This document shows, in pieces, positions 14,909-63,752 of a DNA stretch of 64,000 bases. This stretch comes from Atractiella rhizophila (lineage: Eukaryota). Each line of letters opens with the position of its first letter. The first letter of the stretch is position 1. The position numbers and the translations under genes are program-made. The notes under the pieces are model-generated. The model did no database searches. It was not told the origin of the DNA and saw only the letters and a list, made by a program, of their open reading frames with translations. Location of the stretch: contig MU271195.1 in the NCBI GenBank assembly GCA_021432655.1, forward strand, positions 62,001 through 126,000, in the 5' to 3' direction.

Positions 14909-17900
14909 TCATGCAATCGGAACAAGCAGCTTATTGTGCAATAGAACACCATTTTTCCCCCGGACCACATAGGCTTCTCTCACGCTCGCCAAGATACCCA
15001 AACCAACGATGGGTTCGAAAGGAGCATTCTTCCACTCCTCCACCTTCATCACCTCCGGGACAAATGGTTTTCCAGCTGGTACTTTCTCTTTAATATACTC
15101 AAGTTTGAGAAAAATTCGATCACTGGATCCGTTGCGATGGACGAAGATGAATCGCACCTTAGCAAGGGTATTCAGAGCAGAACTGTCGTGGCCATCAACT
15201 GTGCAAGTGACAATTTGGTTGATCTGTCAGGTTAGCATCTTACGCAAATCGGTGCCCATTCGCCGGATTGCGTCTCCTATCGCCCATTTGTGTTCCCTGT
15301 GAATCGGCGCCCATCACCACTGCGTCTCCCATCACCACTTGGCCCAATTGTGCCTATCCTCCTGTTATTAACTCCGCGTAATCCCACTGTCACTTCCCCT
15401 TTTAGTTCTCTTACATGTTTCATCTGCTCTCCTCTACGCTTTGTGGCAGTGTTATTCCGCTTGTATATATAGATCAGAGAGTAGTGGAGGTGACCTTAGA
15501 GTATTCTCTTAGGTTTATCTCCACTACAGGTTAGTCTTCATGTCATATCATGCTCTTAGGTTTATCTCCACTACAGACGCATCGCCCGTCGGCGACCACA
15601 CATAGTGTCAGCCCTAACATGATCTTGATGGAAATTCACCTTCAAAGGATCTGATCAAACAGTGTGACTTTTTGGAAGTAGGTAAGTCGGCCAGAATTCT
15701 GGTTGATGTCGAATAGAGAGCGGTTTACATTGTAAAATGTGGAATATGCTGTTTTGAGACTGTTGCGAATGGATTCCTTCTTCACATGAGCTGCCAATTT
15801 GTGAACATCAGTCACAAGTGCTTGTCTCCTTGCGTCTGCGACAGAAACAGGTTTCCAAAGCTGAAGATTGTAAAAGCCACTGGAATGGACCTAATCAGTC
15901 TTCAGCTGTAGCAAAGACAACACTACTGACGGCTGAGACAGTGGATCCAGCTGCAGCCCATGGTTTGATCCTGACTTTGTCCACAATATTTCCTTCCATA
16001 TCAAGGTCAACAATACGATGTCCAAAATAATACCCAGAAAACAACCTGGGGCATTCCTCCACTAGTGCATTGAAAACTTCAAAAATCCACATGGAAGAGT
16101 ACGCCCCTTCAAGCAGACATCGTAGAGCTTGCATGAGATTGTCTGTTTGAAGAAAGACAACCTCAATTTTCTTGAAATTTATAGGCGGTGTCAAGCGTTT
16201 GAAAAGTTTGTGAACAATTTCATCAAGAGCAATAGAATTATTGAGTGAAGGTTCCAGTCACTTGAGCTTGTTCTGCGAGATGTAACCCAATGTGCATATT
16301 CGGAAGATTGGAGAGTTCTCCAAAAGGTCCAAAGAGCTAGGGATCGTCAATACAGTTTCTTATAACTCATGGGGTATTAAGATGCTTCACCTTAAGCAGA
16401 CGACGTCTTCCTTCCAGAATAGCCATATTCATCTCAATGTAATCGTTATCGCCTTTAAAGCCCCGCTTAAGAACCATGAAGTTGCTTCGAGCGATTGCAA
16501 ACCAAGTATAAAGGATGATATTCAAGCATTTTGCTGGTGTATTGGCCTCTGCTCCATGAGCATCCTTCAAGACGCCAAGGGCTTGAACTTTAAGGCCTTT
16601 ATCAGGAAGTGTTTCAAGTGCTTTCTGGAGCAAGTGGCCTCCATAAATGGCAAGTCCAAAAAGCTCTTCTGGTTGTATCGCTTCAGATGAGTGATGGGGT
16701 TTGGAGATGTAGTGTAAGCATCTGGAATATCGAAGCACCCCGAATGCAACGGGTCCATGATGGCATCCTTGCCATGTTTACTAAGAAGCAAAATCAAATG
16801 TGAAATCTGAAAGACGCATTGAGATGCCAGCGCCTTCAGAGTGAGAAGGGTCAAAAGTTTGCTGAAGTCCTGGTTGCCAGACCATACCCGCCCTTGTAAA
16901 AACGCAACCCTCTTTCCGTAAACCATAAGACTTTAGTAATGCTTCAGCCTCAGGTGCCGGAAGCTCCAGTGCTTCGTTCCGAATTTCTTCCATTTTGTGT
17001 GACGTGCGGCTAAGTTCAAAACATTCAACCATCGTCATAGAGCAATCAGCATTTAGATGATGTGGCACCTTGCACACCCAGCAATTGAAGTCTGCAGCAG
17101 GGCCAGATAGCCAGCCTGGCTGTTCCCTGCAGGAAAGTCTGTTCGTGCAGACAGGTTCTTGCAAAATATTGCTATCTCCTTTCCATTTGAATCGTATACG
17201 AAAATAGGATGTTTTGATAGAGAGGTGATAGACGTGAGAAATGACTGGCTGGCATCTTCAAATGATACACCGTCAGGCACAAAACCACAGACAAATCTGT
17301 TTCGAAGTTGTTCCCGCATTGGAGCCGGAAGTCTACAAGGAATGCAATAACTCCCTCCAGACTTGCGATGAGTTGTACGGTAAGTTCCGAAATTATCGTT
17401 GAAGGTTGAAATATTGATTGTTATTTCTATGCGGTCAGGCTCTTCTTGCCGCAATCGGGCAAGCTCATGAAGATCCACTTCTCCATTCAAGATCTCCGAT
17501 TCTCCTAAAGTTGATGGTACAAATCCTGTGGAAGAAAATCCTGGTTGTGAATCCTTCAAAGGAAGGTTGCGAGCATGGATTAAAACAGTATCAAGAAGCA
17601 AAGTCTTTCCAGCGTCCCCAAAAATTTCACCGCCATCAGTGATGGTAGAGAGTTCCTCTTGTTTCCAAAGCAAGATTTCTTCGGCTATATCATAAATGGA
17701 TAACAGGGACATTATCTGTGAAATTATGAAATAGAATTCTTCTGTTGGAAGATTATTTGAAGTGTTGTATTGAGAAACAAAGTCTTTCCACATGCGAGCT
17801 GGAGTTGTTTGAGGTGGCGATAGAAGCTTGAGGACTTCAAAATATACTTCTTTATCCAAAATTGAGGAAATCGCAGCCTAACCAGCCCATCAGTCTTAAA

Positions 17901-19254
17901 GATACCTAGAGATGCGGCCATAGGCTTCAGTGCTAGCCAACAGTACCGTGGATTTCGGACGGTGATATTGGACGAGTGCTCCCGGCCATATAAATTCTAT
18001 GGTAAATTGAGCAAGCACAGAAAAAATAGGGCATGGGAGAGCATGAGCTTACGGTTGTTAGATGTATAGATGGGATAGTCTTGGCGGGCTGCAACAATGG
18101 ATTGGTACACAGCTCTCCATGCCAGAACTCAGAGTTCCCTTTGTTACCAGGAGGTGTACAACCAAGCCCAGAATAAAGATTGTTGAAAATATCTGGATTG
18201 TTGATCATTCGTTCCACAAGAAACTTTGGCACGGAATAGAATGGTGCTTCTGCTACTGATCTAACTGACCTCCCTGTTTTGGGGTCCGTAGGAGTGTCTT
18301 GCGGAGGTTCTTGATAGGCTTAATGATTTTCGGAAGATTAGCTGCATTAAATGTTGGCTGTTGAAGAATTGAAACAAGATCAGCATAAGCAGCTTCTGAC
18401 AAATGATATTTGCTGAAGAAAGTAAAAAAAGTAAGTCGATCCTTTTCAAAACTAGAAACTGGTTCCCCTTCATCTGTAAGCAAACCAGTGTTGTTATCAA
18501 TGAGTTCGGAAGGGAAATCAGGTGTGCTAAGTTCAGTGTTGGCTCTGGACGAACAGCCGTCAAGTTCAGGCTCATCCGAAAAATCTTTTTCTTCATCTTG
18601 ACCGAGCAAAAGCCCCGGTGCAGATGGATCATCAGCATCAAAGTCTGATTCAACTCCGGACAGTGCTGCTGGATCGATTAAATGATGACTGCCCTGTTGT
18701 TCATCATCTATACCGATGAGCACTGGTTCACGATCCAATGGTTTGTCTGCAAAAATAGGCTGTTGTGAAAAGTGTAGGCTGGAACTGAGATAAAATGTCT
18801 CTTTCTTTCCAGTTCCAGGATCAGATTCCAGAGGAGGTTGAGGAGAGTCTTCAATTGACATTAAGGAAAAACTAGACACGAGACTTCGTCAGAGGTCAAC
18901 AGGATCATCCTCTGCCAACACAATTGACATGGCGCTGATTGAGGTTTCATCCGAGAGAGGTGCAGGTGGTGAGTGTTGAGTGGCAACATTAGGAGATGGA
19001 TATAAATCGATTCGCTGTGAGAACTAACTCAATGTTAGAATTGAGATTCGGCTAATAGTTAAAATGTGTACAGCCGTTGCCTCATCCTCGTCATACCAAT
19101 CTCTATCTTGAGCAAAGAGAGCTGAGACTGAGTTTAAATCACCATCTTTTACAATTTTTATCTCAGAATTGTTGCTCCTGAAGCGTACAGTCTGAGTAGG
19201 TCCTGCCAAATAAAAGTCAGTAGCTCCATGAATCAAAAGAATGTACACCTTCAA
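14909..19254 (-). pseudogene. EnSpm/CMC-like transposase pseudogene
   Basis: SEFWHGEL, FNDNFGTYRTTHRKSGGSY, RNRFVCGFVP, TDFPAGN, CxxC and DPSHSE motifs. Frameshifts, and a solo LTR insertion. Confidence 0.65.
15225..15619 (+). mobile_element. solo LTR, family A (Gypsy-type), 395 bp
   Basis: TGTCAGG...CCCTAACA with 5-bp TSD TGATC. TATA-like TATATATA near 15465. Confidence 0.93.
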
Positions 19255-29200: not shown

Positions 29201-31031
29201 GGGTGCAAAGCTGGAGTGATGTCTCGCCTCTGCAGCTCTCTTAACTCTTCTATGGTGCGAAGCGCCTAGTCCAAACCAAAGTGTCCAACCATGACTCATC
29301 ATGACTCACATGTTCCAATTTTTTTGAGCGAAATTTTTCCCCTTCTTGCTTGCAAGCTGAGTGCGGACCTGCAAGAGTTTGATATTCTTAGAAGCACAAA
29401 TATATATTTGGCAAAGAACAAGAAGGCAGTATGATTCAAATGAAAGAAATATCCCCAGTCGAAGCTCATGCCTCCGGAATTCTTCGATGTGAGGCATACT
29501 CCTTTACCTGGTATCCGGCATCAATAACATTCTTCTCCTCCTCGTGAGCTCTGATCCAGCAATGAGAGCGATGCTCAACCTTTCTGATTGTGGAGAGTTT
29601 GATAGACTTCAGGGCTTCTGGAACTGTACGACGTAATCCTTCGAAAGTGTAATCACAGTTTGCTGGAAACAGCTTCAGCATTAATCAACCAAAAGGAGCC
29701 CAATGTGCTTACCACGTGTATATCGCTTTGCATGGCCCCATACAAACTCAATACAATTGATTTCACAGTGAAATTTTGGTAGGAAGATGGCATGATGTCC
29801 TTTATGCTCAAGCAACTCCTACAATTGAGGTTTCTGTTCAAGAAAATCAGGTTGAGAGCCCAACAATCTCTTTGTGACAGCTTCAGATTTCTTCTTCAAC
29901 CTGTGATAAACAAAACTTACCTGCACAGCACATGTTGTCATCAGTGTGATCCACAACGTGCTTGCATTTTGCCCATAGGCCTGGCCTTCAGAGACCTCGC
30001 TCTGGCAATATAGCACTCATCCCTTGTGGGACTCCTTGTTGATCCAACATTGGTTGAGGTACCTTTATACAATCCTTACACCACCACCCATCATGCATCA
30101 CCGGCTGCTTCCCACCTGTCAAAAGATTCCATAAACATTGACTTGCCAAGAAGAGAACCAACTGACCTGGCCCCAAGTTCATGTTCTTTGCATTGAGTGC
30201 ATCACTTGCTATTGCACCGTGCCCTGTGGAATTATCAAAGACAACAAGAGCTGTCTGCCCAGGATGCAGTCTCTTGAAAACTGGTATAAACTTTTCTCCA
30301 CCTGCAAAAAAATCACCTTCAAAGCTCATGGCTGGATGAACCTGAAAAGCATACCTGTTCAATAAGCTTCTCAGCATCCCAATAGCCTGCATGGGCCTTC
30401 CCATATTCCAACTGCTCTCCAGCATCTTCTAGCCAGCCATAAGTTGAACAGATAAAATCAGACCGATGAATCCCCCTCCCTGCACCTTTCTTCCGAAGCT
30501 TTGACTGACCATCCAAGCACCATGAATGGTGCTGAACGTCATTGGCGGTGAAGGTGGACTCATCATGGAAAACAGCAACAACCTCGGTAACACCAGAAGG
30601 GAGGTCTTTAATGATCTCTTTCTCAATATCATTGATGTCGTATTGATGCATGCGAGGGAGGAAGCTTTCCTATGTCGGAATGAAGATGCTCTGACGGTAA
30701 TAAACAACATCTGGTTGTTCATGCCCACTGCAAAAAATGTCAGGTTCTCTTTTGACAGCACAGACATAGAGCCACTAACTCAATATAAAGACCTTTTTTA
30801 TAATTGGTCCACTTAAAACCTTCCCTTTTCAACCATCGGCAAGCGTGCTCAAAGCAATTCCTCGCTTCCTGGCTTGTATTGAATATGAGGGAAAACGGAT
30901 ATTTCAAGGTAATGTTTTAGTCCTTTCGGCATCTGTTGTTCCAGCTCCATCTGAACATATATATGGTGCTCCTGTGGGATAAGTGTGGAGAGAGTATAGT
31001 TGCGGATCTTGGTTGGGTCCATGTTCCATTT

Positions 31032-31432
31032 TGTTAGGGCTGACACTATGTGCGGTCGCCAATAGGCGATGCATCTGTAGTGGAGATAAACCTAAGTGCA
31101 TGATATGACATGAAGACTAACCTGTAGTGGAGATAAACCTAAGAGAATACTCTAAGGTCACCTCCACTACTCTCTGATCTATATATACAAGCGGAATAAC
31201 ACTGCCACAGAGTGTAGAGGAGAGCAGATGAAACATGTAAGAGAACTAAAAGGGGAAGTGACAGTGGGATTACGCGGAGTTAATAAGAGGAGGATAGGCC
31301 ACAATTGGGCTAAGTGGTGATGTAGGTGCAAATGGGCGAACGGGAGACGCAGTGGCGACGCGGCGCCGATTTGCAGGGAACGCAAATGGGCGATAAGAGA
31401 TGCAATCCGGCGAACGGGCACCGATTTGCGTA
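31032..31432 (-). mobile_element. LTR family A copy, about 15 bp missing at the U3 end
   Basis: Colinear with the reverse complement of 15225-15619. No TSD visible. Confidence 0.9.
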
Positions 31433-31707
31433 GAGACAGACCTCTGTTTGAGACTGGAAGCTCTCCTGTCTCCTCATAATGTCTTGCCCAACCCGAATAC
31501 ATCTTGCTCCATACACCTCACCGAAACGAGTTGCACTTGCTGCGTACTTTGATGCCTCAACACACCCTCTCTGCCCACTCTTCAACAGATTATAAAATGA
31601 TCCCAGCCCAGTGCCCTCACTCTCCTCGCCTGCAGCTCCGTATTAAACTTTCCCTTCCCTAGACACTTCTCGATTGCTGCTGCTTGCTTCCTGCACCGCT
31701 CCATCTC

Positions 31708-32197
31708 TGTTAGGGCTGACGCTATGTGCGGTCGCCGACAGGTGATGCGTCTGTAGTGGAGGTAAACCTAAGAGGATACTATAGCATGAGAAGACTGACC
31801 TGTAGTGGAGGTAAACCTAAGAGAATACCCTGAGGTCACCAACACTACTACTCGATGTATATATACATATGCAAAGGCACTGCCATAAACTGTAACATAT
31901 GCTTCTTTGAAACATGTAAGGCAAATAGTTCAGGAAAGCAATAAAGGGAATACTCAGAAATAAGAGATACTGAACAGTACTAGAGAGAAAGGGTAGTAAG
32001 GCGAAAACGCAACGGTGCAGACCGGTGAAATGTATAAGGTTTGCTGAGCGGCGATTCGTATGAGAAAGGGGAAATCGGCGAACAGCGCGGGCATGAGCAA
32101 AGCGGCGACGAGTAGGCACGTGCTCCCATGATGTGGTAAACTGGGTCACGTGACTTCAGATGATGCATTTCAGTTATGCGTAGGGGCAAGCCTGACA
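31708..32197 (-). mobile_element. solo LTR, family B, 490 bp (shares R/U5 with family A, different U3)
   Basis: TG..CA ends, 5-bp TSD ATCTC. Confidence 0.93.
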
Positions 32198-34590: not shown

Positions 34591-35640
34591 TCAACTCCTC
34601 CCTATCACATCCCACATTTTCTGCTGGAGCGGGTCCGGAATCAGTCCCGCTATCAAGGGATTGAAGAGAATTGCTATAGCTGAGCTAACAATGCCAATCA
34701 CAGCCAGCACTAACTGACGCCGTTGGGGCAAGTTGGGAATCGCAGAGATACTAGCCAGGAGTGCAGAAATAGCGACGATTAACATTAGGATTCCTCTTCC
34801 TCGCCGGAGCCAGCCACGCAACCTTGTGTATTTTCTAAAGTCGTTGTGTGCCTGCCGAGTCTCCTCGCTATTCAACATCATCAATCGATGCTAGAAGGTC
34901 ATTGATCTGATACCTACAGCGATTTCGCTTCCTCTCTACTCCAGAATCGCCTGGGAAAAGAGTATGGAAGTGAACCTAGAGATGAAGCAGGAAACGAACG
35001 GTGGGCTTCCTTTCGCAAGAAGACCTGGTTGGTAGATCTGTTTCAACTCGAGACGCCTATGCTTGATTTTCAACTCCAATCCACCTTGTTCATCTTTTCT
35101 TAAAAAAATGTGGTCTGTGACTTTCCCACTGGCCACCAACGGTCCTATTGGCAAAGTAAGCAATAATGACACGAGAAGGATGGGTACCTACTGCCTTCGT
35201 CGTCGAAATCATCAACGAAGGCTCTGATGCGGGCGATGACTTCGATGTCTGCATGCTCTTTTGCGTCTGTTGATTCTATGTAAACCTCAAAGTACACGAG
35301 CTGTTGAGGCAAGTGTAAATCACTCAACTTCGAACTAAGTAGGAGGAGGAGGGAGGAGTGACAGCAGGAGAAATTTCGTACTGGGAAGAAGCAAGTGTTG
35401 TATATGTCGGCAACGCAGTTATTCAACGAGTGCACCAGCCCTTTCTGTGGCTCCATTCGCACCTCAATATTCCAGGTTACATCAGCTGCCCCTCGAATAT
35501 CAGCGAGCATAAGCTCCTCACAGGAAAAATATCGCTTACGATTTAAATGATAAGAGTAGAAACGTTCACTATTATCTGACTTCCTGCTGAGGCATCCTGT
35601 TGACATAAGGTTAGAGCCCAAGACTAAGCTTTTGCACACC
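34591..35640 (-). CDS. orphan gene: NTF2/SnoaL-like region plus one 2-TM hairpin; exon structure uncertain, may extend to about 36270
   Basis: VHSLNNCVAD..DIEVIARIRA..VASGKVTDHIFLRKDEQGGLELKIKHRRLEL, then ISALLASISAIPNLPQRRQLVLAVIGIVSSAI. Confidence 0.5.
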
Positions 35641-36381
35641 TATGGAGTCTCTGATCAAGACAAAAATCTGTGGGTGGAGTGGGCAAAATGCGCGCAACTT
35701 CGTCGTCTAAGTCATGGCTGGGTTTGCCACTAGAAACAGAACTTGTGCTTCGACTCGCAATAGATCCATCTGCATTGGTTATGTCGAGTGGCGACTGCAT
35801 TTAACATAAACTAAAGTGGGTGAAGTGAGGTGAGCTGGGCGAACGAAGTGAGGGCAGGAGAGCTTTTCAATTTTAAGGCCGCCTGGCTAGCCACAATTCG
35901 ACGTTCTGATGTTCCGTATTCAACATCCAATGCCAATTCACGATCTGTTGGAAATACGATGGGCCGATGGGTTTGTCGTTCTAATTTAATTGATCCATTT
36001 ATCACGTACTGAATGTTCAGTATGTACGTTCGGACGAGGATGCACTTGAAGTTAACTTTGACTTATCGAATAATAGTGCTTCGATCGGAGTTACGACGTT
36101 AATGTGTACGTACGCTCTGTTGATCAGTTTGACATCGCTCGCAAGACATCCATCACTTTGCAAGCAATTTGCAGAGTCGGTCTTGTACAGTTTGACCTCT
36201 TCCACATTCCAGCGCTTCGAAGCTGTCGATGGCCCAATATGGAGAAGGAGGAAACATTGTGAGTGCAACAATCATTGCATGGTTACTAGATTCGCAAACA
36301 CTAACATTTCTCGCAGTGAGGGTGTGCGCCTGAAAATAACGAGGGTCCGTGATCGCTTCACTGTTCTGAGATTTGGCATCG

Positions 36382-37893: not shown

Positions 37894-37931
37894 TTCAGCT
37901 TTGCAAAAAAATGAACATGGATTATTAGGTA

Positions 37932-39486: not shown

Positions 39487-39499
39487 TAGTAGAGGATGA

Positions 39500-40799: not shown

Positions 40800-40838
40800 T
40801 TTCTAAGTTTGGTTTTGAAAAGGAGATAGAGTATTTTC

Positions 40839-46988: not shown

Positions 46989-48049
46989 GGAGTGAGCGAC
47001 AGGAAAGAACGAGGGGCAGATGCAGTTCAAGCGCCTGAATACCCATTTCAGCACTCAAGCGATGTCGGCAGTGGCCGTGCTCACTCGATCTCCTTACCAA
47101 TCTTGTTCCTATTCCGCTTGGTCTGCCGCTTCATGCTCACAAGGTTATTAGGCTAGAAGATGCTATGTCATGCTCGTGGTGAGATACAGCTTAGGAGAAC
47201 TGGAGAGACGGGATACTGACCTAGGCAGCCAAGTCTCAAGTGAGACCTTTCCGAGTACTCCTACAAGCATCCGGTGGTGCTCTCGCACTTTGTTTTCTAT
47301 CCAAACTATTGGCTAACCTTCAAAGTGTGAATTGTGGCCATGGGATAAGGCACCATCGATGTCGAATTGGGATCAATGAAGACAATAAGTTGAGGTGGAA
47401 AACAATAAGGTGAGTAGACAGATTATTTCCTCGGATTGCTGTATACCCAACGAATTCGGGAACGATTCTAACAAAAGTCTCTAGGGAGAAAAAGGTGGAG
47501 AAGGAAGCGAAAGGGGGCATGAATGGATGATGGATGCAGTGTAAGGTGTTGAGATGTTGAAAGGATTTGTGAAATGAAAAAGGTGCTCCCACGTAATTTG
47601 GGATGTAAGTCCTAAATCTGGTTGAAATGGAGGAAGAGAGGACACACCTGGATAGTCGATCATGTTGATTGTGCACGCAACCAGCCTAGCTCCATTCTCT
47701 GCGAACCACCCTCAATCCTTCTTGTCCAACCAACTTGGATAGTTCTCCTGAGTACTCCTCGCTTCTTCAGGTCATCGCCACGCGATGGCTGATCGAAACT
47801 GATCAGGTTTCCTTGGGTTGTTTCGAAGAAGCCTGCTAGAACACCAGTTAGCCTGGTACTCTGCTCCAAGGAAGAACTACTCAGTGAAGTGCGTTCAGTC
47901 GCCTCCGTCAAGCACTCTGACGACTTAAGGCCCCTCCCATCTCTGAAATCTCTGCGGTTGCAGTGCTGCTGGTTGGTTTTGCCAGCAGAAATGCGAGTGT
48001 CTTTGATACCGGCTTCCCATGTAAAAAAAATGGCGAAAAACTTATACAC

Positions 48050-48579: not shown

Positions 48580-49782
<1,203 letters not shown>

Positions 49783-50158
49783 GAACTCATGGGACTTAAA
49801 CCTGAATGTTTCGACAGACAATTGAAGCTGGATACTGCATGGGCTTACTGTTGTAGAAATGTTTGAAATTGGGATTACTGATGAGGTATTCGATGGAGAG
49901 TACAACTGTACACATTTTCCTTAAGAACACAATCTAGATTGAAAGAATAAACGAATATGAACGAAGGAGATGAAAATTTACGAGTGATAATGCAACATAC
50001 AAGTGACGCAGAGAATCCATGTAGAAATTGAAGTGTTAGGCCGTATGAGTTGGAGTTGGAGGGAAGTGAGGTGATGCATGCGACTGATGAGCAAACTTGG
50101 ACAAAGCGAAAAGCAAGCAAATAATAATCAATCATCAATCCAAAAGCGATCCATTGAT

Positions 50159-53100
50159 TTAGCCAATGTGTCTAGTGGTAAAGAACCTCACGACCTCCCA
50201 AAACTTGGGCAGCATCTCTTCCCCCTCCTCCACCTGGATGCCCTCCGCGCGCACATCGCTCTTCAATCCTGCGCCTTTCCTCTCGTGATTCAAGGCTGCC
50301 AGACCATTCCACTTCCCCACCAAATCTCGCCGTAGCTTCTCCACCGTCACCCCTTCCTCACGGAACTTGTCGCCAAAGATTTTGTTCTGGAACATCACCA
50401 AAACATTGATCGCTAAACAGGAGGTAACGGGAAGTATTGGATCGGATGACAGAGAATTGGCCAGAATGAGAGATGTTGCCGTAGGGACAATGGGACGGGG
50501 TGGAGTGCGCCCACGCCATACGGAAGAGTGAGAAGAGTGAATGTTCGTTATTGTGCCCATGAAGGGTAGATGCATGACGATGTTCCGTGGTGTGTTCGTG
50601 TCGATTAGCTGCCCTTTGCAGAGGGCTTCGCGTTTTTGGTTGGGAGGAGGGATCTCGGCAATATCTGAGTCGGCTGGACTTGTGGAGACTTCTTCTGGCA
50701 ACTGACGCTGGCGTAGAACTGAAAAATGAGGAAACGATGTTTCATCCACTGAGACGAGGGTGAGATGGGCCGGTCGGTCGTAGATCGTGAAATCTTTGGA
50801 TTTCGAGAAACTGATCCAAGCTTCACACATTCTCAGTTCCTGCCACCATATTAGAGAGAACGTAAGAGCATTCATACCCTTCATTTCCAGCCACCCTAGC
50901 TCCTCCGCCCTTCTTACGATCGCAATAGTCCTCCAAGCAGTATTGCTATTCTCCAGTGCTTTAGCTCGAATCGTCTTCCACACCGTCTCCACCCTCTCTC
51001 TCTCTTGAGTTAGCTTCTTCTTCACAGCCACTCCATCTTCATTGTACGACAACCAGCTCTCGCCTTCCACCCGGCAGACAGAAAAGTCTCTTCCTTCTCC
51101 TCGGTCGTCCTCCCAACAGACGAGCAACCTTTCTACCAACTTGCCATCTTCAGTATTTTTCGTCACTTCATTGACTGTGTCCTTGACGGAAGGCAGAAAG
51201 CAGTAACCGACAAATAACACTCGCCCTTCGTTCATGTGGACTCCGCTTGGCGCTGTAGGAACGAGCTTCTTGAGAAACGGTCTCGTCCGTTCTCCGAAAA
51301 CTGAAGCCAAGTTTGCGTCGTCTTCTGATAGGGTGAAAGAAGGGTGATAGAAATAACGCAAATGTTCAGCTTTATCCAGCTTCGCCTTTGCAGACTCGTC
51401 CTCCGCTATTCGTGGCCCATCCTCCGTATCCTCCGTCAGGTCTATGATTTCTCGTGGACGAGTTTCGACGACGAGGGGAACAAGCCGTTTGGGACTATGT
51501 CGCCAAACTGGCATGTAGATCTGATCGTAAGTATTGAAAGACAGATGACGGAACCTAGCTGCCGCAGATGGAGGCATGGGACCATCTGTTGCGACGCCGC
51601 TGAGACTTGTGATGAAGGTCGAACGATCAATGATGTGGATGTGAACCTTAGTCTTTGCGCCAATCAGTTTACGAATTTGAAGTGTAAGATCCACGACACC
51701 GGCCCCGCTCAGAACAAATATTACAGCAGAAGAGGATTTTGGGGTCGCAGCAGAAACATTGGTACCTGCGGGTGATAGCTCAGGATGAACAACCATGGGT
51801 GATAAATACTTACAGAGGTCAGTCAGATACTTAATTCGATCTGGAGTATCATAGGAAGGAAGCATAGCGACACTGTCGCTAGAAAAGGGTTGGAGGTCAC
51901 CAAGGTATGAGTCCTGAGAATTTGTGAGGATTAACATAACCTAACTTATTAGAACACGCACACTATAGACTTGCGCTAATTCATCGAGCCAGGCTGACCC
52001 TTTTGACTTCAGGGCTAAATCTGCTGGCTCCAGCAATAAGAGCGCATTGATAGTCTTTGCACCATAAACTGGTTCTAACTGAATGTTCTCCCAGAACCGC
52101 AAAGACACAGCAGAAAGCTTGACCGTCCAACCCTGATGACAGACATTGATCCTCGGCGCCTCCGAGAACACAAATTGGTTTGCTTGATTGACAGATGCAA
52201 GAGAAATGAATGGACTACATGAATGTACCGCCAACAGCTGAACCGCGTGCAATGATGATGGAACGGAAACTGTAACAAGAGATATAAGACAAAGGAGGAA
52301 GCTGACAAGTGACGTACCAGACTCAGAAATGGATGGGGATGGGAATACATTGTCAGTTGCAAATAAATGCGATATGAGCTCGCTTAGGAATTCGTCTGTT
52401 AAACTGGAATGAGAAGGGAAGAGCCGCGAGAGATGGTTGTCGTCTGAGCGAGGGTCGTGAAGTACATCTCGTTCAAAAAGCATAAGGTCGGTGCTAAGAC
52501 AACCGTCGGTTCGCTGGTCCACTATGGTCAGTTTTGCCATAGAAAGCATCTGAGCATCCAGTTCAGCCTGTGTCAAAGCTGCAGGACTGGAAAAAGTGAT
52601 CGCGTCTTCTGTGTCGTCGCTGAACTCCTCATCCTCGCTTTCATCAAGCTGCAGACTGCCAACGCCGATGATAAGTTCCCTTTGCTTCTGTTCTAAATGC
52701 TTCCGATCTTCGACTCGTTGCCTCCGCATATCCAACTCATCCATCCCCCTAACTGCTGTATTCCAACTCGGCTGCCTTGAGAAAGTCACTCTTGTGTTGC
52801 CGTTCACAACAGGATCACGCCTCTGCATGGACATCCCTCCGTGCGTTATTTTCTGAACCTTCCTCCCACCATTTTCTCTCAAATTCTCACGTTCTCGTAA
52901 TCCATTCGCTCTAGTCCATTTTGGGTCTGTGAACGAAACGGGAGATGGCCCAAAGTGGCCTTGTCGGAAAACAGGGTATTCTTGATTTCGTGGAGGGCTG
53001 AAGGTAATCGGAAATCGTGGTTTAGATAACGGAAGTCGGCCGTCGGTGGACGATGCTCTCTTCCGGATTTGACGATTTGGACTGATGTGGAATAATCCAT

Positions 53101-56100
53101 TTGCGTTGGGAAGATACCCATTAGCTTTGTCCGAGTATGGGGCATCCTGCTTCCGATTTTTGATTGGGATCTCCTCCTTGGATGAAGGAATGGATGCTGG
53201 AGAGGGATCTACTGGAATCGAGGATGGCAGGTCAGAAATGACGATCTCCGCCAAATCGTCGGTGACCTTCTCCAAAGGCGCAGGCGGGACCTGCGGGAGA
53301 TATTGCATGGATGAGTCCATACCTGGGTGATGAGCGAGGGCCAAATGTGTGGCTCTGGTGCCATCGTGAGCGAAAGTAAAGGTAGTTGGGGAAGGAAGTA
53401 GTTCTTTCGACGCGATCGAAGAAGGAATCGACGGCGAGTTGGGTAACATTGGCGTTGGAGGCAGTGGATGCGAGACCGGTTGAGAAATGTCCATCTCATC
53501 CCTAGAGGGATCAAAGTTCCCATCGATCCCTTTCTCGTCATTGTAGAAATCAAAATCGGCATCTTCCAGCCCAGTGAACTCCTTCATCATATCTACATCC
53601 CCATCCATCCAGTAACCTGCACTAAACCCCAGGCCCATGAATGAATCACCGCCATCCACTCCGTTTGATTTCGGTAGATCGTTAGTGCTGGCAGCCATGA
53701 CGACATCTGGACTGTCAGTGAGGGAGAGTGGAGTGATACTGACCACACCGTTCACAACTCCCTGTGAAGGTGTCTTCTTCCTCCCGGACTTCGCTCTAAC
53801 GACAGATTCCTTCTCACGTTCTCTCTCACGTTCCTTTTCTCGCATCAGATATTCAATGTACCCGCCTCCAGCGTCCATCAATCTCTCTATCGGATCCTGA
53901 GGCACTTCCACTTCCTTCGAAAGTGAGGATCTATGAAGACGTTGGACTAACATCTTCCGCGTCCCTTTTGATGTGCGCTCCCGCAACGGGAAACCCGATC
54001 CTTCGGCCCGATGAGCGCTTGATGCAGCCAAACTGGAAGGCTCTGTCCCAGGGTCAGGACCGTTGACATCGCGATCCTTAAATGGTTCCGGCTCTTTACG
54101 TTGGTCCAAACCATACTCGATGACGCAGAGCTCTGCCGGCCAAACAACGTTGGTTGTCTTCCCATCTCCACTCAGCTCCACCTCAACAACGCACCATTTT
54201 CCCTCGCTCTCCTCATCGGGCCAAATTGACCTCACCTCATCCTTCTCCCCATCTCCCATCTTTCCTTCCAACGCTCTCTTCCACTTCGGTCTCAATATGT
54301 CCCTCACCTCCTTTCTCTCGTTTATGATATGCCGATCGCGTTCTGTCATATTCATCAAGGGGGCTTCCAACCGGGCGAACGCGCTGTTGTACATCGCGCT
54401 CGCATCTCCGTAGTATCGTACGAATTGTCCCTTGATGCCTTTAGGTCGGAGGAGAATAGGTGTACCCTTCGTGACTGATAGAGACCGGTGCAAAGATGGG
54501 GCGAGAGGGTATAGCTTGCGGTCTCGACAGCGCGTGAGGGTGATTGACAGGCCGTGAGGATCTAGCGAAAGGCGGAAAGAGGCTTCGATTACTTCTGGGA
54601 CGAGGGAAGAGAGAGAAGGCGAAGCTCTCGCTTTTCCCTTCCCTTTTCGATCGGAGCGGCGTATGCGCTCCCTATCCTCGCTTCCAGCCAAGTAATAACC
54701 CTCGACCTCCTCCACAGTCCTCTCCTCGTCTTGTGGTGCAATGGGAGGGAAAAGGAGCAGGGTAAATTCGCCTGCCCTCTCTCCGGCATATACCACCCTC
54801 CCCTTCCTTCTTTCTTGTGTCCCCGCCTCCTCCCCGCCCCCTCCACCGAATATCTTCCCAACTCTTTCTCCGAGCGACTGAGTGAATGCATTCCAGACTC
54901 CTCCATTGACAGTGTCTGGATTCAAGAGCTCCGAAAGTTCGATGACGGACAACGAGTTGGTGTATGCCCTATTGAGAGGGGATTGGAAGAGGTTGAAAGG
55001 GTCCTGTCGAGGCGGTGGCGGTTTGTCATCGGGGGGAGAGTCGGTTGATAGAGGTGTGAGAGGGGAATCTGGAGGCTTGAGGAGATTCGGGTAGAGGGGA
55101 GCAAACAGCGTGGAATGGGTCAATTGTCCCTGTCCGATTTCTATCCATCGTTATCATCAGCTCCACAATCAGACATAAGCAGGCAAAAACGAACGTTCGA
55201 ACCCTTCTCCTGCCTGCCACTCCATGAAGAGCTTGAACCTCTTCCTATCCTCCTCCCGCACCTCGTTTCCAAAAGCCCAAAAGGTATAAAGCACCCTGCG
55301 TATCGCGCCAGCACAGGTCCCCTTCGCCTTTTCTTCCTCCTTCCAACACCTAATATGCGCCCACACGCCACCCCAACCTTCTCCATCATTTTCAAGATGG
55401 GGGAACAAAGCGAGGAACTCCCCCCTCTTTCTTTCGACGACGTCGTCCAATTCCGCCGCGACAGGATTCGAGGAGGAAGATGGGTCCACGTCCATCTCAA
55501 TTCGGATGGGTGATGCCAGTTGTCCCTCTCCACCTGTTACAACGGTGTTTTCTGTCGCCATGACCGTGGCTAAGGCAGCGGCGGAGGTGGAAGGTGTTAT
55601 CGTCGCCGTTGTTGGAGGAGGTACGGGGGTAAGGGCGGGCAAAGTTTCCGAAATCCTCTGCCTCTTCGCCGGCCTGACGCTATCCACCGTATCCGTCCTA
55701 TGCTTCTCTTTCCCTCCCACCGAGGGCGAAGTATGCATCATCTGAGACTGGGGAATTGGTGGAGGAGCACGAGGAGAATCAGGGTCAAGGTCTACGACCT
55801 CCAATTCCTTTCCTTTTCCTTTTGCCTTCTCTCTCTCTTCCTCCTTCTGCTCCTCCTTCTGTTCTTTAGCTCCTTCCTTCAAAGGTACCGAAACCTCCAC
55901 CCCCCAAACCCTCTCCCAAACCCTCTTAGCCCCATCTCCCTTCTCCTCCCAAGCGCGCCAAAACACTTTTTCCTCCTCCCCTGCACGAGTGGTGCACAAT
56001 GGGATCCTCCACATCGTCGGTTGGAGGGAGGAGGCTGTCGCTTCGGTAGTTACGTGGGGGAGGGGGAGTTGGAACGGCGCGAGAGCGGGTTGGGGGGAGC

Positions 56101-56500
56101 TCGTCGTCGCTGGTCCGTGACGAGTGAAGGTCGAGTGTGGGGAGGTGCCGGTGGTGCGCGTGTACATGATGATCTGTCAACGGGTGGTAGAGTCAGCAAT
56201 GCAGTCCGGAAGGAGCAGCGCACACAAAGCAAGCATTCCCGAGCAATAAATGGATAAGTGCAGACCGTGGGCAAAAGTAAGAAGTGCCGAATCACACGAG
56301 TTGACAGCACTTCTGTCACACTGTTTAACGAAACAAGGTCGTACTGAGCAGATGTGGATCTCGGCGGAAGGCCGCGCACAGCCCTTCTCACTGTCAGTGG
56401 ACCTCCATACATGGAAGAAACGACAATTTGGAGGAGATAGAATTGAGTTGTTTCGGTTAGAACATTTGGTGTTAGAGGCAAATTCGTGTCTTGATTAAGG
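50159..56500 (-). CDS. MED13: Mediator kinase-module subunit 13-like; start not resolved
   Basis: Long exons 55169-56167, 51941-55123 and 50159-51937. Motif PRINVCHQGWTVKLSAVSLRFWENIQLEPVYGAK resembles the Med13 MID region. Overall size about 2000 aa. Confidence 0.72.
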
Positions 56501-57482: not shown

Positions 57483-60400
57483 ACCAAAATAGAAATTATG
57501 TGATTGATTTGCGTACCACTGTCACTCAGTTCGCTGGTTTCCCCAATCACGCGTAAGCAGCGAAATAAGAAACAAAGTGATTGGGGAAAATCTGAAATGG
57601 ACCTGATGAGAGCTTTTATAGTCCCGGCTAAGTGGCGAAGTGTCCACATGAAAATAAACAGACCAAAACACCGAACGCCATGCAAACAATGGGAAGGCTG
57701 CCAATACCAGTCAACTTCTAACACCCCCCTTCACTTCGACACTTCTCCTCCTCCATCGTCTTCATTATCCCAATATCCCGTGCCATCGCCTAGCAATCCC
57801 ATGGCGAAACAGAACTTCTGGTGTGACGCCGCTGCCAGCCCCTTCGTCAGGACATCCGCAACCATTCGCCTCGTCGGGATCCACTTCAGTAGAACTTCCT
57901 TGTCTGCGACTTTCTCCCTGGTGTAGTGGTAGTGGACTTCAATATGTTTCGTCCTCCCATGCGCTGCTGGGTGTGCCGCAAGAGTGATTGCACCTTGGTT
58001 ATCGCCTCGAATCAAAGTCGGTTCGACTTGTGAAAATCCGAGCTCATGGCACAGGCGCCTGAGCCAAACCGCCTCTCTTGTGGCCAGCGACATAGCAATG
58101 TATTCAGCTTCTGTTGACGATATGGCAACGCTGAGCTGACGTTTCGAAATCCAAGAAATCGCCGCTCCTGCCATACGAAACAGTACACCAGAGATCGATT
58201 TCCTTGTCGTGGGGTCCGCTGCATGGTCCGCATCAACGTAGGCATCAAAAGAAGGATTGGGTTGGAGGTAGCCATCGAAATGTAAGCCATAATCGTACGT
58301 CCCTGCAATGTACCGCAGAATCCTCTTAACGGCCAACCAATGCTGGCTTCCAGGATTTGCGCAATACCTCGCCACCTCCGAGACCGCGAAAGCCAAATCT
58401 GGGCGAGTACATGTTGTGAGGTAGATGAGAGCGCCCACCGCCTCCCGATAAGGTATGTGCTGCATTGCAGCTCTCTCGTTGTCTGATTTCGGGGACATGT
58501 CAGGGGTTAGCCTACGATTGTAATCGCACGGCATTTTGACGGGGGATACGTCGCCACCCAAGTATCGTTCGACCAACCGTCTCGCATATCCCTCCTGGTG
58601 AACCTTCAGTTTCCCACGTCCCTCGTCCTCCTCCAGTTGTATTCCTAAGAACAAACGAGCCCGACCCGATTCGACCTTGTAGTGTTGCCCCAAACCATCG
58701 AGAACATGGTCTATCAGAGCATCGGAGGAAGATACGAGCAACCCATCGTCAACGTGTAGGCACAGAATTAGGAGGTGACCTTCCTTCTGGAGGATGTAGA
58801 CACCATGGTCCGACGTCGTGCGCACGAGTCCAAGGTCGGTGAGCCTTCCATGTAAGTTCAAGTTGAACTGTCTACCGGCTTGACAGAGACCATAGAGCGC
58901 TTTCGCGAGCTGATGCACACTCTTGGGGTTTTCTCGATCGACGTACCCAGGCGCCTGTCGAATGTACACTTCCTCCTCCAACTCGCCATTAAGGAAGGCA
59001 TTTCCGATGTCAAACTGACGTTTGTACATCTTCAATTGGGCTGCAATCGCCAGAACGACCCTCAGCGATGTGGTTCGAACGGTGGGTGACCAGGTCTCTC
59101 CATAGTCCACCCCTTCCTGTTGTTGATCCCCTCTTACAACTAGTCTCGCCTTATACTTCCTCACCGTTCCATCCGGTTCACGTTTTATGAGGAGCACCCA
59201 TTTCACCCCCAAGGCTTTCCTCCCCTGTGGAAGCTCGACATTCTTGCGCTTGAACGTCCCCATCGCCTCCAACGCGGCCATCTCCGCATCCATCGCGAGC
59301 AGCCACTTATCCCTGTCCGGTCCTGCAACAGCCTGCGCATAGGAGGGTTCGTCAACGTTGCCCGTCCAGAAGACTTCGTATGTTCCATCGTCATCTTCGT
59401 CAGGAGTGAGGAAGTGATACGCATCGTCCGAGATTCTGGCTAATAGGGAATGTGTGTCCCCACTCGACGTAGTCGTCGTCACTCCTCGAAGGAGGTCTTC
59501 GACAGACAGTCTGCTGTCGTGAGTCACACACAATCCTCGTTCGTGCATCTGTCGATAGTCCCTCCTCTCTTTAACTCTCATTCCCCGTCCCAATGATGGC
59601 TTTTTAGGTGTAAACATAGATGATTTCCTCACATGTTCCCTTTCCTTCTGCACCAAGCCCTCGATCGCCTCAACTGCTCGTTTGACGCTCGGGGCATCAC
59701 TCGTCTCGATCTGACCTGGAGTCGTCTCCACTCTTGGCTTTGGAGCTGGCGACGGCGAGGGTGGGGGAGATGGCGTTGTGACACCCGACGGTGCCTGGTT
59801 TCCACCTGGTTCTTTTTCCCTCCCCAGAATTTCTGGGCCCCCTTCCATTCGCACTCCATCCAGTTCGCCTTCCACAATTCCTCGTATTACCTCCTCATCT
59901 TCCTCCATCGCTTCCATCGGAAGAAGATCCAGGAAGTCATCGCCGTTTGTGTTTTCCAATATCTCGTTATCCCCTTTTGACCGTCTTTCGTAGAACTTAT
60001 CTTCGAAGAATCTAGCCGATCTACTTTCCACAATTTTCCGGGGTCCCCCGTCCGGGTCCCAGAATCTCCAGCCATTTCCATCGTTCACGTATCCGACGAA
60101 GTACATGAGTTTCGCTCGTGGAAGTAGTTTCGATCTTCTCTGCTCCGGCATGATCGTAACCGCAGCCAGGCATCCAAAGGCTCTCAGGTGTGTTGTATCA
60201 GGTTTCTTCTTGTAGAAGACTTCGTATGCTGACTTCATTCCTTCGTTCCCCTTTGTAGGCATTATGTTCTTGAGCTTTACAGCAACCTTCATCGCTTCGA
60301 ACCAGAAGGATAGTGGCAACCCAGACTGAATAAGGAGGCAGCGAGTAATATTGAGGACGGTGTACCATTGCCGCTCCCACAGACCTGCTTGATCGTGTGC

Positions 60401-63400
60401 ATAAGGCAATGTCTTCATGGAAGCAATGTTATGTTTCCGTTTCCACTCCTCTATCGCTCGTGAGGTGAATTCTGTGGCTTGGTCGTGACGTATCTTCCTC
60501 ACATCCTCGCCTATTTCTCTCTTAATGAATGCTCTCGTTTCCTCTATTAATGTAGGCGCCTCTCCCTTCCTCTTCATTCCTCCCACGACCATGAGCCTGG
60601 AAGCTTCGTCAATCGCTCCAAATGCGTAAGAATATCCCTCGATGCTCTTAACTGATGCCGGTCCCCATGTATCGAAGCCAAAGGTTTTCCCCACAACCTC
60701 CTCCCTAGACTTTGTGGGAGCCTTACTCTTCACGTATCTCGCTTTTCCTTCCGCACAAACGACACACTGATGAAAATCTTCTTCATTGCACTTTTTTATT
60801 TGGTCGTTTACGAGTACCCCGCTTCTAACAGCTTGCTTAAGCCTTTCCATCCCAGGATGCCCTAATCGGAGGTGCCAGGTACGGAGAGGGACTGCAGGAA
60901 ACGCTTGGTAAGGGACCGTCGTACGTGGAGATGGGGACGCTGGAATGAAACTCGCCTGAAGAGTGATGAGCCTGTTTCCAATCTCACACGTCCCAAATAC
61001 CCTATCGTCCCTCCCAGCGAGGTATACCGTCTGAGTGTCGTTCGTGAATTTGACACCAGATTTCATGAGAATCCTTGATGAAAGAAGGTTGACGCCAAGT
61101 TTAGGGGCAAAGAAAACGTTTCGAATCGTTCCAGAGTGGATCTTTTCATCGACGGCTTGGAAAACAGGACGCAAATCGCCTACTCCTACCGCATATCCTG
61201 TTGATCCGAATGCACCAGAAATTCCGATAGGCGTACTGAGCACTCGATAGTTGTGGAGGAGCCAATCGCAAGTAGTCAAGTGAATAGACGCGCCAGAGTC
61301 CAAATGGAACTTCTCATTTCTGGCAGACGGATTAGAGGGAGGATGCGCAGGCACCACATCGATAGACAAGTCGATCGGAGAGACCACAAATGCCGACTCG
61401 TACCCTTTTGATCCTTCTTTCTTGTTCACACCGATGAGTGACGGCACATCGTCTAACTCAAGCGAATTCCCAACTTCTTGACCAGTTTGTCCCATTCGCC
61501 CTGATTGGGGAGGTGCGAACGGCCTGCACAAGGTGGTATTCTGTAATATGAACTCGAATAGATCCTTGACTTTGTGCTTGAACTCGCGCTGCAACCTCTC
61601 TTCATCCTCAGAAAGAGGTCCCACCCCATCCAAGTTGAGCAAACCGAAGTAAGGAAGAAAATCGTCGGGATATTTCCAAGCACTTGTCACTCTCAAGATA
61701 GTGTCTTCATCTTCGACATCTTCCAGGAACGCTCGTATCGCGACATCAATGGGGTTCCATTGTTCCTTTTCCATCATCTCCTCTTCTTTCCAAAACTCGT
61801 CCTTATCAACGAACGTCTCCTCCTCTTGGATCAAAGGTTCCAAAGGTTCTCCTTGCTCGAGGATATCCTCGTCATTCACCATTGCAAGGTACGCCCCGAA
61901 GTCGCTGGTTATCGTCGTTTCCTCCTCTTCTCCATTATGGACGACATAATAGCCCTTCTCTTGTTGCAAAGGAGTCGTTGAACTTTGGCCCATATGATCG
62001 AAGGAAGACAGGACATTTGGTTCCTCGAAATATGGACGATTCGTTTGAGGGTTTATATCCTCTGCATAGATCGCAGGAGCGTTGCCTTCTTCGAACACCT
62101 TGATCACGTATGCGTTTGCATTCGCACGGGGGAGGTCGATACCGTATTTCTTGAATTCTCGAACGAGGGAGTCTACTTGCTGGTGCTTCTGAAGTGTGCA
62201 CTCTCTACCCCAGTGCCCCTCTTGCCCACAGTGATAGCACTGGTTCATAGATATCCTGAAATACCCCTTCGGAGACGTTCCATGCGGCCACTCTCCCCAA
62301 TTCTTCAACGCACGAGCATTAGGCGCCATCCGATTTATCAACGGAGTCGAGGGAGGGGACTTAGTCGTGGACGAAGGCGTTGTCGGGGGAGAGTTGATTG
62401 GAGTTCTCGCGTTTCGCCGATTTGATGGAGAAGAGATCCTCGATGCCAGACTTGGGGTTTGCGTCTTCTTAGGAGTTACGTTCGTCTTGCTCGTGTCCAT
62501 CCTCGCCAACAGTGATACACCACCTTCTTCCATAGTTCCTCCCCTATTTCTCCTCGCTTGCTCTTCAGCAGTCAACTTCTGGACAACAGTTGCAAGATCT
62601 GTCTGTACGACTCCTGTTGATGACAGCCATCTCCTAAGGGATTCGTCCAATCCGTTGATCAGGATTAAGGAAAGGAAAGCATCGGAGATGTTGATGGTCG
62701 ACTGGGACTCGTTGAATTTCCTTCTCTTATCGTGCAGCTTGGCAATCCAATCTGAAAGGGCGAGATTACTGATGGAGTGCGAAAAATCGAGGAGATCTTT
62801 GAGGAGATGCGCTGTATCAATGTACTGGGTTGTGTCGAATTTTTCTTTCAAAATCCTAAGCGCCTCTACCGGATCCTCCGTACTCTCAATAAACACCTTC
62901 GCCGTGCTTCCCACTCCTTTCCTCAACAGCGCCATCGCAATCGCAGATTTTTGTTGATAGACCGTCAACGACCTCATGAAATTTTCGAGATCTTCCGCAG
63001 AGGCATTTATCGCAGGCACCGTTTCCCTTCTCTTCATCCTTGCTCATTGTTCAGTAAGCGTTATTCCCGTCTTTGGGTTCAACGGTTCTGTCAGGACACC
63101 CTCTGTGACCAGAGAAACTCCATAGGCTCGAAACCATTGGTCAATGAGGCGAAAGAAGGTCTGAGCGTTGTTATAATCGAGTTCGGGCAACGGATCATTT
63201 CCGATAAGGGATTGAATCGCGCTATTCATGTTGATCTCTCCTCCTCTCGCTGACGAAGAGACAGTAAAAGGAATTGACAACGAAGTTGTATCGAGAAGTG
63301 GAGGAGTTACGGTAGTTCTCGTAGGTATGTTAAGAGAATTGTCGGAGAGTTCTGGAGTGATTTCTTCTCTTTGAGACATTCGCGCACGATAATTTTTCGC

Positions 63401-63752
63401 TGAAGGATAATCGCAGGACGTAACGGACCTCTCGCTACCAAAATAGAAATTGTGTGATTGATTTTGTATCACTGTCACTCAGTTCGCTGGTTTCCCCAAT
63501 CACGCGTAAGCAGCGAAATAAGAAACAAAGTGATTTATTACGGAGATTATGTGAAAACATACCTGGTTTCCCCAATCACGCGTAAGCAGCGAAATAAGAA
63601 ACAAAGTGATTGGGGAAAATCTGAAATGGACCTGATGAGAGCTTTTATAGTCCCGGCTAAGTGGCGAAGTGTCCACATGAAAATAAACAGACCAAAACAC
63701 CGAACGCCATGCAAACAATGGGAAGGCTGCCAATACCAGTCAACTTCTAACA
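57483..63752 (-). mobile_element. Ty1/Copia LTR retrotransposon, recent and near-intact
   Basis: 189-bp identical LTR cores (57535-57723, 63564-63752). PBS TGGTAGCGAG at 63431-63440. PPT GAAGGGGGG before the 3' LTR. No TSD. Confidence 0.97.
57731..63379 (-). CDS. Copia gag-pol polyprotein with one in-frame TGA at 63044-63046
   Basis: Zinc knuckle CYHCGQEGHWGREC, protease LDSGAS, WHLRLGH/CVVC, integrase D-D-E, RT YKARLV and LHVDD, RNase H DADHA/EAEY/DNQ/ADVLTK, in Copia order. Confidence 0.95.

Follow-up and report, generated by a model that had tools for sequence, protein, structure and literature searches.

Several long terminal repeats (LTRs) of retrotransposons in a 64,000-nt stretch of the Atractiella rhizophila genome (assembly GCA_021432655.1, contig MU271195.1, positions 62,001 to 126,000; hereafter the window) carry a short unit that resembles a spliceosomal intron ending in a copy of its own upstream exon. 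We consider a split-leader LTR, the intron of which is rebuilt by reverse transcription, to be the best explanation for this arrangement and assign it a probability of roughly 60%. The evidence comes from seven sites in the window, belonging to LTR families A and B, an LTR-like family C and a Ty1/Copia element, and from distantly related Copia elements in metagenomes, six of which contain a second exon copy that looks already spliced. Positions refer to the window throughout, and the coordinates of the features are collected in Table 1.

All seven sites had been noted in a preliminary description of the window, and direct reading in LTR sense found each at its reported position. Each consists of a repeat ending in CAG, a donor of the form GTNNGT (GTTAGT, GTCAGT, GTACGT or GTATGT) directly after this CAG, a unique spacer of 19-27 nt and the same repeat once more. 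The second copy again ends in CAG at six of the seven sites and in CAA at 40882; the geometry proposed in that description was thereby confirmed at every site, including the mutated acceptor. Spacer and second copy together, referred to here as the unit, measure 47, 47, 49, 64, 47, 49 and 76 nt in positional order. When the entire 64 kb was searched exhaustively for direct repeats that do not overlap (exact match ≥16 nt, period 20-200), seven cases emerged, all corresponding to these sites; the window thus shows no background of such repeats lacking the GT/AG geometry. The repeat sequences of families A/B, C and Copia are unrelated to one another. By chance, CAG and GT..GT would meet at the boundary with a frequency of ~4^-7 in each of them, and on this estimate their presence in three unrelated sequences cannot be chance.

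Eighty further Copia loci, with 27-42% amino acid identity to the window element, were retrieved from metagenome contigs using an alignment of this element and nine distant relatives. Among right-maximal repeats of at least 12 nt in these loci, an AG|GT boundary was present in 9 of 343 cases in sense orientation, compared to 1 of 347 in antisense. One of the nine sense cases, in locus L073, proved to be a duplication at the polypurine tract and was set aside. Repeats of 9-11 nt yielded one sense and no antisense case and thus add nothing, which argues against hidden extra cases. The preliminary description had suggested a survey of LTR repeats for AG|GT boundaries against a control, and both the window (7/7) and the metagenomic loci answer in its favor. 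Eight of the 80 loci carry a unit (L003, L033, L039, L046, L050, L054, L057 and L058), with repeat sequences that are again unrelated. The arrangement is simple in L033 and L050, which have GTATGT or GTATTT donors, units of 48 or 50 nt and repeats of 24 nt (L033) and at least 12 nt (L050), followed by a short U5 region and a primer-binding site (PBS) of the half-tRNA type.

The other six carriers, hereafter the XY loci, have a longer layout. Here, U3 is followed by a segment X, an intron-like stretch termed intron A, a segment Y, a spacer starting with GTA and then X and Y again; U5 (0 to ~24 nt) and the PBS come next. Intron A reads GTRAG...YAG, measures 47-53 nt as cut by our script (~49-55 nt including the terminal AG that it shares with Y) and shows, by eye, a CTRAY-like motif towards the end. 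The second X is joined directly to the second Y in all six loci, precisely at the borders of intron A, which identifies the second copy as the spliced version of the first. As judged from the sequence, the fusion shows a product that only reverse transcription of spliced RNA would explain, namely a spliced-leader complementary DNA (cDNA) placed downstream of an unspliced copy. The spacer together with the second X and Y forms a second putative intron with GT..AG borders in six of six loci, and removal of both introns yields X-Y-PBS, that is, the sequence of the second copy again. In L054 and L057, X has no terminal AG, so that one long splicing step joining the X donor to the end of the second X is ruled out there, consistent with the two-intron path. 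X ends in ACTGAG in five of the six loci, and Y is pyrimidine-rich and ends in YAG; taken together, the end of X and Y look like a branch site and 3′ splice region.

Within each XY locus, the two copies are nearly identical, with mismatches between first and second X of 0, 0, 1, 0, 0 and 1 and none between first and second Y in any locus. Between loci (15 pairs), identities amount to only 0.55 for X and 0.61 for Y and do not exceed those of intron A (64%) or the spacer (63%). The two copies thus evidently evolve in concert, and the near identity within such diverged loci argues that copy 2 has been recopied from copy 1 far more often than substitutions accumulate. Families A and B appear to behave likewise at a single site: their repeats differ at one position (T versus C), and the difference is present in both copies of all five LTRs. 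A third copy was seen neither at any window site nor in the 80 Copia loci, with always just two being present. Tandem Repeats Finder reported none of the window units because these are only ~1.5-1.6 periods long. We rejected a plain tandem repeat or minisatellite as an explanation in view of the unique spacer, the ~1.5-1.6 periods and the absence of intron A from copy 2 in all six XY loci. On account of the same absence, we also rejected an introner-like gain, in which the repeats would be a long target-site duplication (TSD) of an inserted spacer.

A maximum-likelihood tree of the reverse transcriptase-RNase H region (78 rows) placed the six XY loci in one clade with long internal branches (Shimodaira-Hasegawa-like approximate likelihood ratio test (SH-aLRT) support 97), which also contains L040 and L055. 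L033, L050 and L072 formed another clade (support 100), while the window element stood apart on a long branch. On this distribution, the design is apparently old and has been kept while its sequence turned over, occurring in at least three Copia lineages as well as in families A/B and C.

Where the RNA would begin and end can be predicted from nearby motifs. In nine units, the repeat starts 31-42 nt downstream of a TATA-like box, counted from the first T of the box (38 nt in the window Copia, 42 in A, 36 in B and 31-39 in the six XY loci); these motifs include weak variants and were chosen after the sequences had been seen. Such spacing would be expected if copy 2 stopped where the RNA begins, by run-off of the cDNA at the RNA 5′ end. 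At the other side, AATAAA occurs within 15 nt of the spacer/copy-2 border in four of eight Copia-type units (L033, L054, L058 and the window Copia, where it straddles the border), compared to a background of 318 in 40,279 windows (0.8%). Three more Copia-type units have the one-mismatch variants AATACA or AATATA near this border. In fungi, cleavage takes place 10-30 nt beyond the poly(A) signal; at this distance from AATAAA, it would fall inside copy 2, before the acceptor. The idea that the A-rich spacer ends are remnants of a poly(A) tail was discarded, as the motif is AATAAA rather than a run of A.

These features can be combined into a replication scheme. The LTR would consist of U3, an R that corresponds to exon 1, a spacer starting with GT, a repeat of exon 1 with its terminal AG, and U5. 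Transcription would start at copy 1, making exon 1 the functional R. In the 5′ LTR, spacer and copy 2 would be spliced out as a spliceosomal intron of 47-76 nt to leave an mRNA of exon 1, U5 and PBS, and RNA of the 3′ LTR would be cleaved and polyadenylated inside copy 2, just past the poly(A) signal with which the spacer ends. An RNA ending inside copy 2 has no acceptor, and its 3′ end would therefore stay unspliced. Minus-strand strong-stop DNA made on the spliced leader, the complement of exon 1, would then pair with the partial copy 2, and extension through spacer, copy 1 and U3 would rebuild the whole LTR. With AG as the end of exon 1, the copy preceding U5 would automatically supply a correct acceptor, and the arrangement would reproduce itself. 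Of these components, the formation of copy 2 from spliced-leader cDNA is strongly supported and the full regeneration cycle moderately so; present-day splicing at the units, where the RNA starts and stops, and pairing at copy 2 are what we infer from sequence features. The preliminary description had already proposed that spliced-leader cDNA joins an unspliced 3′ copy and so rebuilds the intron. The spliced second copies in six loci and the concerted evolution of the copies lend this idea strong indirect support, as do the TATA-box spacing and the poly(A) hexamers, but it does not predict, for a single insertion, the unequal LTRs of the window Copia described below.

The units were compared to introns of the host. 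Three sequencing runs were mapped on 30900-42000 only; two of them (X1 and X2) are DNA, and the third (X3) represents RNA since its contigs skip GT..AG host introns. Six RNA-confirmed host introns in single-copy genes at 34.8-36.9 kb measure 49-64 nt and read GT..AG or CT..AC in the contigs. GTNNGT donors are found in five of these six introns and in all seven units. With 47-76 nt, the units are of similar length, the Copia unit (76 nt) being somewhat longer, and the earlier statement that they match host introns in size holds; the donors match likewise. The CAG acceptor in six of seven units corresponds to the YAG of GT-AG introns, with CAA at 40882 as the exception. A branch site would be expected as a CTRAY-like motif 10-40 nt before the acceptor; by eye, CTTAC in the Copia unit and CTCAC in the C unit lie at suitable distances, and A/B have only CTTAG. 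RNA coverage by X3 over the A and B LTRs was thin, with a summed depth of 1.6-8.

The window Copia is an intact element. Its frame contains, in this order, the Pfam domains zf-CCHC, Pol_BBD, gag_pre-integrs, rve, SH3_retrovirus and RVT_2, and a protease barrel was also found. Given the zinc knuckle, protease and integrase ahead of RVT_2, the flanking LTRs, a purine run before the 3′ LTR and the PBS-like stretch TGGTAGCG, which we take to be directed at initiator tRNA-Met, the Copia-type assignment made in the preliminary description was upheld. No relative above 43% identity to the polyprotein was present among the 120 matches listed in the protein collection, and none was found in viral contigs. 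The 3′ LTR, on which the preliminary description does not comment, shows that an LTR form lacking precisely the unit exists. Both LTRs agree at 190/190 positions before the junction, and the ~47 nt of U5 after it differ by three substitutions and one indel. A matching target duplication was not found at the element flanks. As one replication cycle should give identical LTRs, the asymmetry would stem from a later event or from an assembly mis-join. Such a later event could be a repeat-mediated deletion; alternatively, an intron-less copy with another U5 could have been the source of a conversion or the partner in an exchange. A likeness of the Copia spacer to the end of U5, weak and noted by eye, was dropped.

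Several observations weigh against a split-leader LTR with a regenerating intron. The post hoc choice of TATA-like motifs has been mentioned, an AATAAA-like motif is missing ahead of copy 2 in families A, B and C, and the branch-site match of A/B is only weak. No RNA joint lay at any unit border among the 15 of 86 joints listed for 30900-42000 (minimum share 5%, a high cut-off for repeats of this depth). A single RNA contig covers a unit, that of family C (from X3, depth 8.95), and it is unspliced; it carries the majority variants of the family and is compatible with the model, which expects unspliced 3′ ends. The tree is a quick version and not the result of a careful search. Of ~25 loci with a recognizable LTR pair (counted by hand), only L033 and L039 carry a unit, and it is absent from L055 and L072 despite their positions in unit-carrying clades. 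In L040, a close relative of L003, the LTR contains a single fused X-Y (2105-2165) and no intron A, spacer or second copy. The unit is therefore dispensable. The L040 form is the one expected if strong-stop DNA paired with the first copy of a fully spliced template, and such pairing with copy 1 would more generally yield single-copy LTRs like L040 and the Copia 3′ LTR. In the window Copia, the unit is confined to the 5′ LTR, where a single insertion under the model predicts identical LTRs. Moreover, deletion between the repeats by recombination or reverse transcriptase slippage gives the same product as splicing, and intron-less LTRs cannot discriminate between the two.

Three alternatives were weighed. 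A leader intron could be real and yet inherited in the ordinary way, with only unspliced RNA being packaged and reverse transcribed, copy 2 being a relic of a single illegitimate strand transfer from a spliced ancestral RNA and occasional cycles on spliced RNA keeping the copies alike. Retroviruses and most LTR elements do replicate from unspliced RNA, and an unspliced RNA with an R composed of copy 1, spacer and part of copy 2 would presumably reproduce the LTR. The unspliced RNA contig over unit C fits this idea, and an intron-like LTR end without a repeat in L028 suggests that LTR introns are possible without the device. Templates that are exclusively unspliced would, however, let the copies diverge independently, and only two differences in total were seen in the six XY loci versus ~40-45% between loci. 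In addition, the fused X-Y has been kept across a deep clade, pointing to frequent spliced templating rather than a single event. We regard ordinary inheritance as unlikely.

Alternatively, no splicing might occur today. The units would then be partial tandem duplications of R created by reverse transcriptase slippage or misaligned first-strand transfer, their GT/AG borders would be leftovers or incidental and the unit-less Copia 3′ LTR would reflect a simple repeat-mediated deletion. Reverse transcriptases readily delete and duplicate direct repeats, a repeat-mediated deletion yields exactly the ‘spliced’ product and the listed joints do not include splicing at unit borders. Slippage nevertheless cannot excise intron A from copy 2 at exact GT..AG borders, as seen in six of six loci, and it is difficult to reconcile with the fact that a GT behind copy 1 and a terminal AG in copy 2 recur in every family of the window and in the sense-biased metagenomic cases, with donors that fit the host pattern GTNNGT and with the restriction to two copies per unit; we judge it considerably less probable than ordinary inheritance. 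For the window Copia, which has no target duplication and LTRs that differ only downstream of the junction, a mis-join between copies is conceivable, but the same geometry at seven window places and on eight independent metagenome contigs, along with contigs of two further runs that carry A, B and C sequences, renders chance resemblance or an assembly artefact barely credible. A split-leader LTR with a rebuilt intron hence remains our preferred explanation. Whether it amounts to a general ‘splice-proof’ design of fungal-type LTR retrotransposons, with the intron rebuilt in each cycle and the device having arisen several times, we consider an even bet. In such a design, the poly(A) signal would be hidden in the leader intron and a spliced, well-expressed mRNA would double as replication template, with origins in at least three Copia lineages and two further LTR families.

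Families A and B are true LTRs with TG..CA ends and 5-bp target duplications, and all copies in the window are solo or truncated LTRs. In a self-BLAST comparison, they share the last ~185 nt, including TATA box, repeat and U5, and differ in U3, which makes them one lineage rather than two. The three families described earlier as unrelated, A/B, C and Copia, do have unrelated repeats; the repeat length given as 24-28 bp for A/B resolves into 24 nt for A and a corrected 28 nt for B. At the B copy at 31708-32197, X1 and X2 DNA contigs skip exactly 495 nt, which looks like an empty-site form. An exact search for the A/B repeat gave no match in metagenome or viral contigs. Among 99 open reading frames (ORFs) with 90 aa or more in the interval 14-49.5 kb, none encodes a reverse transcriptase, integrase, gag or other retroelement domain. 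The earlier label ‘Gypsy-type’ for A, B and C is therefore without basis, there being no linked pol. Family C is multicopy in the DNA runs and has LTR-like ends; self-BLAST revealed no partner LTR or second copy in the window, and a TSD was likewise not found. It is LTR-like and only plausibly an LTR.

Table 1 Features of the window that relate to the LTR units.
Feature	Position	Strand	Remarks
Family A solo LTR, TG..CA	15225-15619	+	TSD TGATC at 15220-15224 and 15620-15624
A repeat copy 1 (proposed exon 1/R)	15506-15529	+	Starts 42 nt after first T of TATATA
A candidate 47-nt intron, GTTAGT...CAG	15530-15576	+	23-nt spacer and copy 2 (15553-15576)
Family A LTR copy, U3 end truncated	31032-31432	-	Contig loose end at 31429
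A candidate 47-nt intron, GTTAGT...CAG	31075-31121	-	
Family B solo LTR	31708-32197	-	X1/X2 DNA contigs join 31702 to 32198
B candidate 49-nt intron, GTCAGT...CAG	31751-31799	-	
Family C multicopy repeat, ~220 nt, ends TGTTGG...TACA	37713-37933	+	Boundaries approximate
C candidate 64-nt intron, GTACGT...CAG	37824-37887	+	Repeat copy 1 (39 nt) at 37785-37823
Family A LTR, R-U5 side	40839-41104	-	Interrupted at 41104/41105 by B solo LTR
A candidate 47-nt intron, acceptor mutated to CAA	40882-40928	-	
Family B solo LTR nested in A LTR	41105-41594	+	TSD AATAG at 41100-41104 and 41595-41599
B repeat copy 1, 28 nt	41475-41502	+	Starts 36 nt after first T of TATATA
B candidate 49-nt intron, GTTAGT...CAG	41503-41551	+	
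U3 remainder of interrupted A LTR	41600-41758	-	
Intact Ty1/Copia element	57487-63752	-	1770-aa frame at 57731-63043
Copia 3′ LTR	57487-57723	-	Without exactly the 76-nt unit
Copia 5′ LTR, 312 nt, with unit	63441-63752	-	PBS-like TGGTAGCG at 63440 and below
Copia candidate 76-nt intron, GTATGT...CAG	63487-63562	-	27-nt spacer 63536-63562 and copy 2 63487-63535
Copia repeat copy 1, 49 nt	63563-63611	-	Starts 38 nt after first T of TATAAA

Some additional features of the leaders were recorded. Segment X is predicted to fold into a hairpin at the predicted RNA 5′ end in four of the six XY loci (L003, L039, L054 and L057; z scores -4.8 to -6.7), with stems that differ in sequence between loci. The repeat of the window Copia forms a 13-bp stem only when 9 nt upstream are included (63563-63620, minus strand; z score -4.8), which would restrict this stem to the 3′ (U3-R) context. 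One or two ATG triplets are located in each of the spacers of A (15530-15552), B (41503-41527), Copia (63536-63562) and L033 (4006-4029). They would be lost from the leader on splicing and may bear on translation of spliced versus unspliced RNA; the C spacer has none. At the LTR end of L028 (2415-2462), an intron-like stretch of ~47 nt reads GTAAGT...CTGAC...CAG without a copy of the upstream exon; the last LTR base together with the first PBS base, a G, completes its acceptor. This may be an LTR intron of the ordinary kind, which does not regenerate.

Outside the retroelements, the segment 34529-37663 contains single-copy, expressed and spliced host genes on both strands, in which X3 skips introns of 49-64 nt and the ORFs have no Pfam match. 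A 2,529-bp segment occurs in tandem at 41938-46991 (41938-44466 and 44463-46991, 99.8% identity), again with ORFs lacking a Pfam match. In the region 49360-56176, a fragment of a uracil phosphoribosyltransferase host gene (49360-49746, plus strand) is followed by a Mediator Med13-like host gene (50159-55150, minus strand), in which Med13_N and Med13_C are weak, below the Pfam cut-offs.

No description of an LTR intron that ends in a copy of the upstream exon was found in the literature, with subscription journals and supplements lying outside the search; this agrees with the preliminary description, which knew of none, and LTR organization and replication of this kind appear to be novel. Related cases exist. 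Penelope of Drosophila virilis has a 75-bp intron 46 bp after the start site, within the terminal repeat, which is spliced in most transcripts and needed for expression (PMC2377424). A short intron retained just downstream of the transcription start in a terminal repeat is thus what Penelope-like elements would have in common with the LTRs studied here. Those elements, however, form a separate class that uses target-primed reverse transcription, as opposed to a Ty1/Copia LTR with a proposed rescue through R-mediated first-strand transfer, and the available text of the Penelope paper mentions neither an exon-1 copy at the 3′ end of the intron nor strong-stop transfer (PMC2377424). A recent maize preprint reports introns inside LTRs, to its authors’ knowledge as first evidence, that average 1303 bp and lie in kilobase LTRs yielding non-coding RNAs (bioRxiv 10.64898/2026.05.08.723830). 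Like the units, these introns are located within the LTR; direct-repeat geometry and a retention mechanism are not described in the accessible part of that preprint.

More distant parallels concern retroviruses and models of intron gain and loss. In the R region of human T-cell leukemia virus type 1 (HTLV-1) and foamy viruses, a splice donor is present, and a nearby donor suppresses the promoter-proximal poly(A) site in human immunodeficiency virus type 1 (HIV-1); in retroviruses, the corresponding acceptor is situated in the body at a great distance downstream, and the genome is carried by unspliced RNA. Donor and poly(A) signal in a stretch common to both RNA ends, used differently at each, are shared with the arrangement proposed here, in which, unlike in retroviruses, the whole intron including the poly(A) signal sits inside the LTR and ends in an exon-1 copy. 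Rogers’ model reportedly explains intron gain by tandem duplication of an AGGT-containing segment, the first copy providing the donor and the second the acceptor. As proposed for the units, the duplicated segment supplies both splice sites and splicing restores the original sequence, but under that model two complete units would stand in tandem, each followed by GT, in contrast to the unique spacer and to a copy 2 that is followed by U5 and is already spliced in six loci. Boeke and colleagues are said to have observed in 1985 that a marked Ty1 loses its intron precisely during retrotransposition. Introns are thus removed when spliced RNA is reverse transcribed, a rule from which the present structure appears to escape. 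That marker intron was located in the body without a copy of the upstream exon and was therefore lost for good.

Since introns do not survive the reverse transcription of spliced RNA, retroelements are expected to be intron-less or to replicate only from unspliced RNA. At the same time, many fungi express intron-less genes poorly, which sets the expression of an element against its inheritance. In the structure described here, just a duplicated exon and normal strand transfer would suffice to resolve this conflict. If correct, it would add a new rule of LTR anatomy, an R split by an intron that contains the poly(A) signal, and would provide a mechanism by which introns persist, and are recreated, through an RNA intermediate. 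It would also explain a class of ‘tandem repeats’ in LTR annotations and offer a natural design for intron-bearing retro-vectors. The intron itself would then be a heritable, self-regenerating part of the retroelement.

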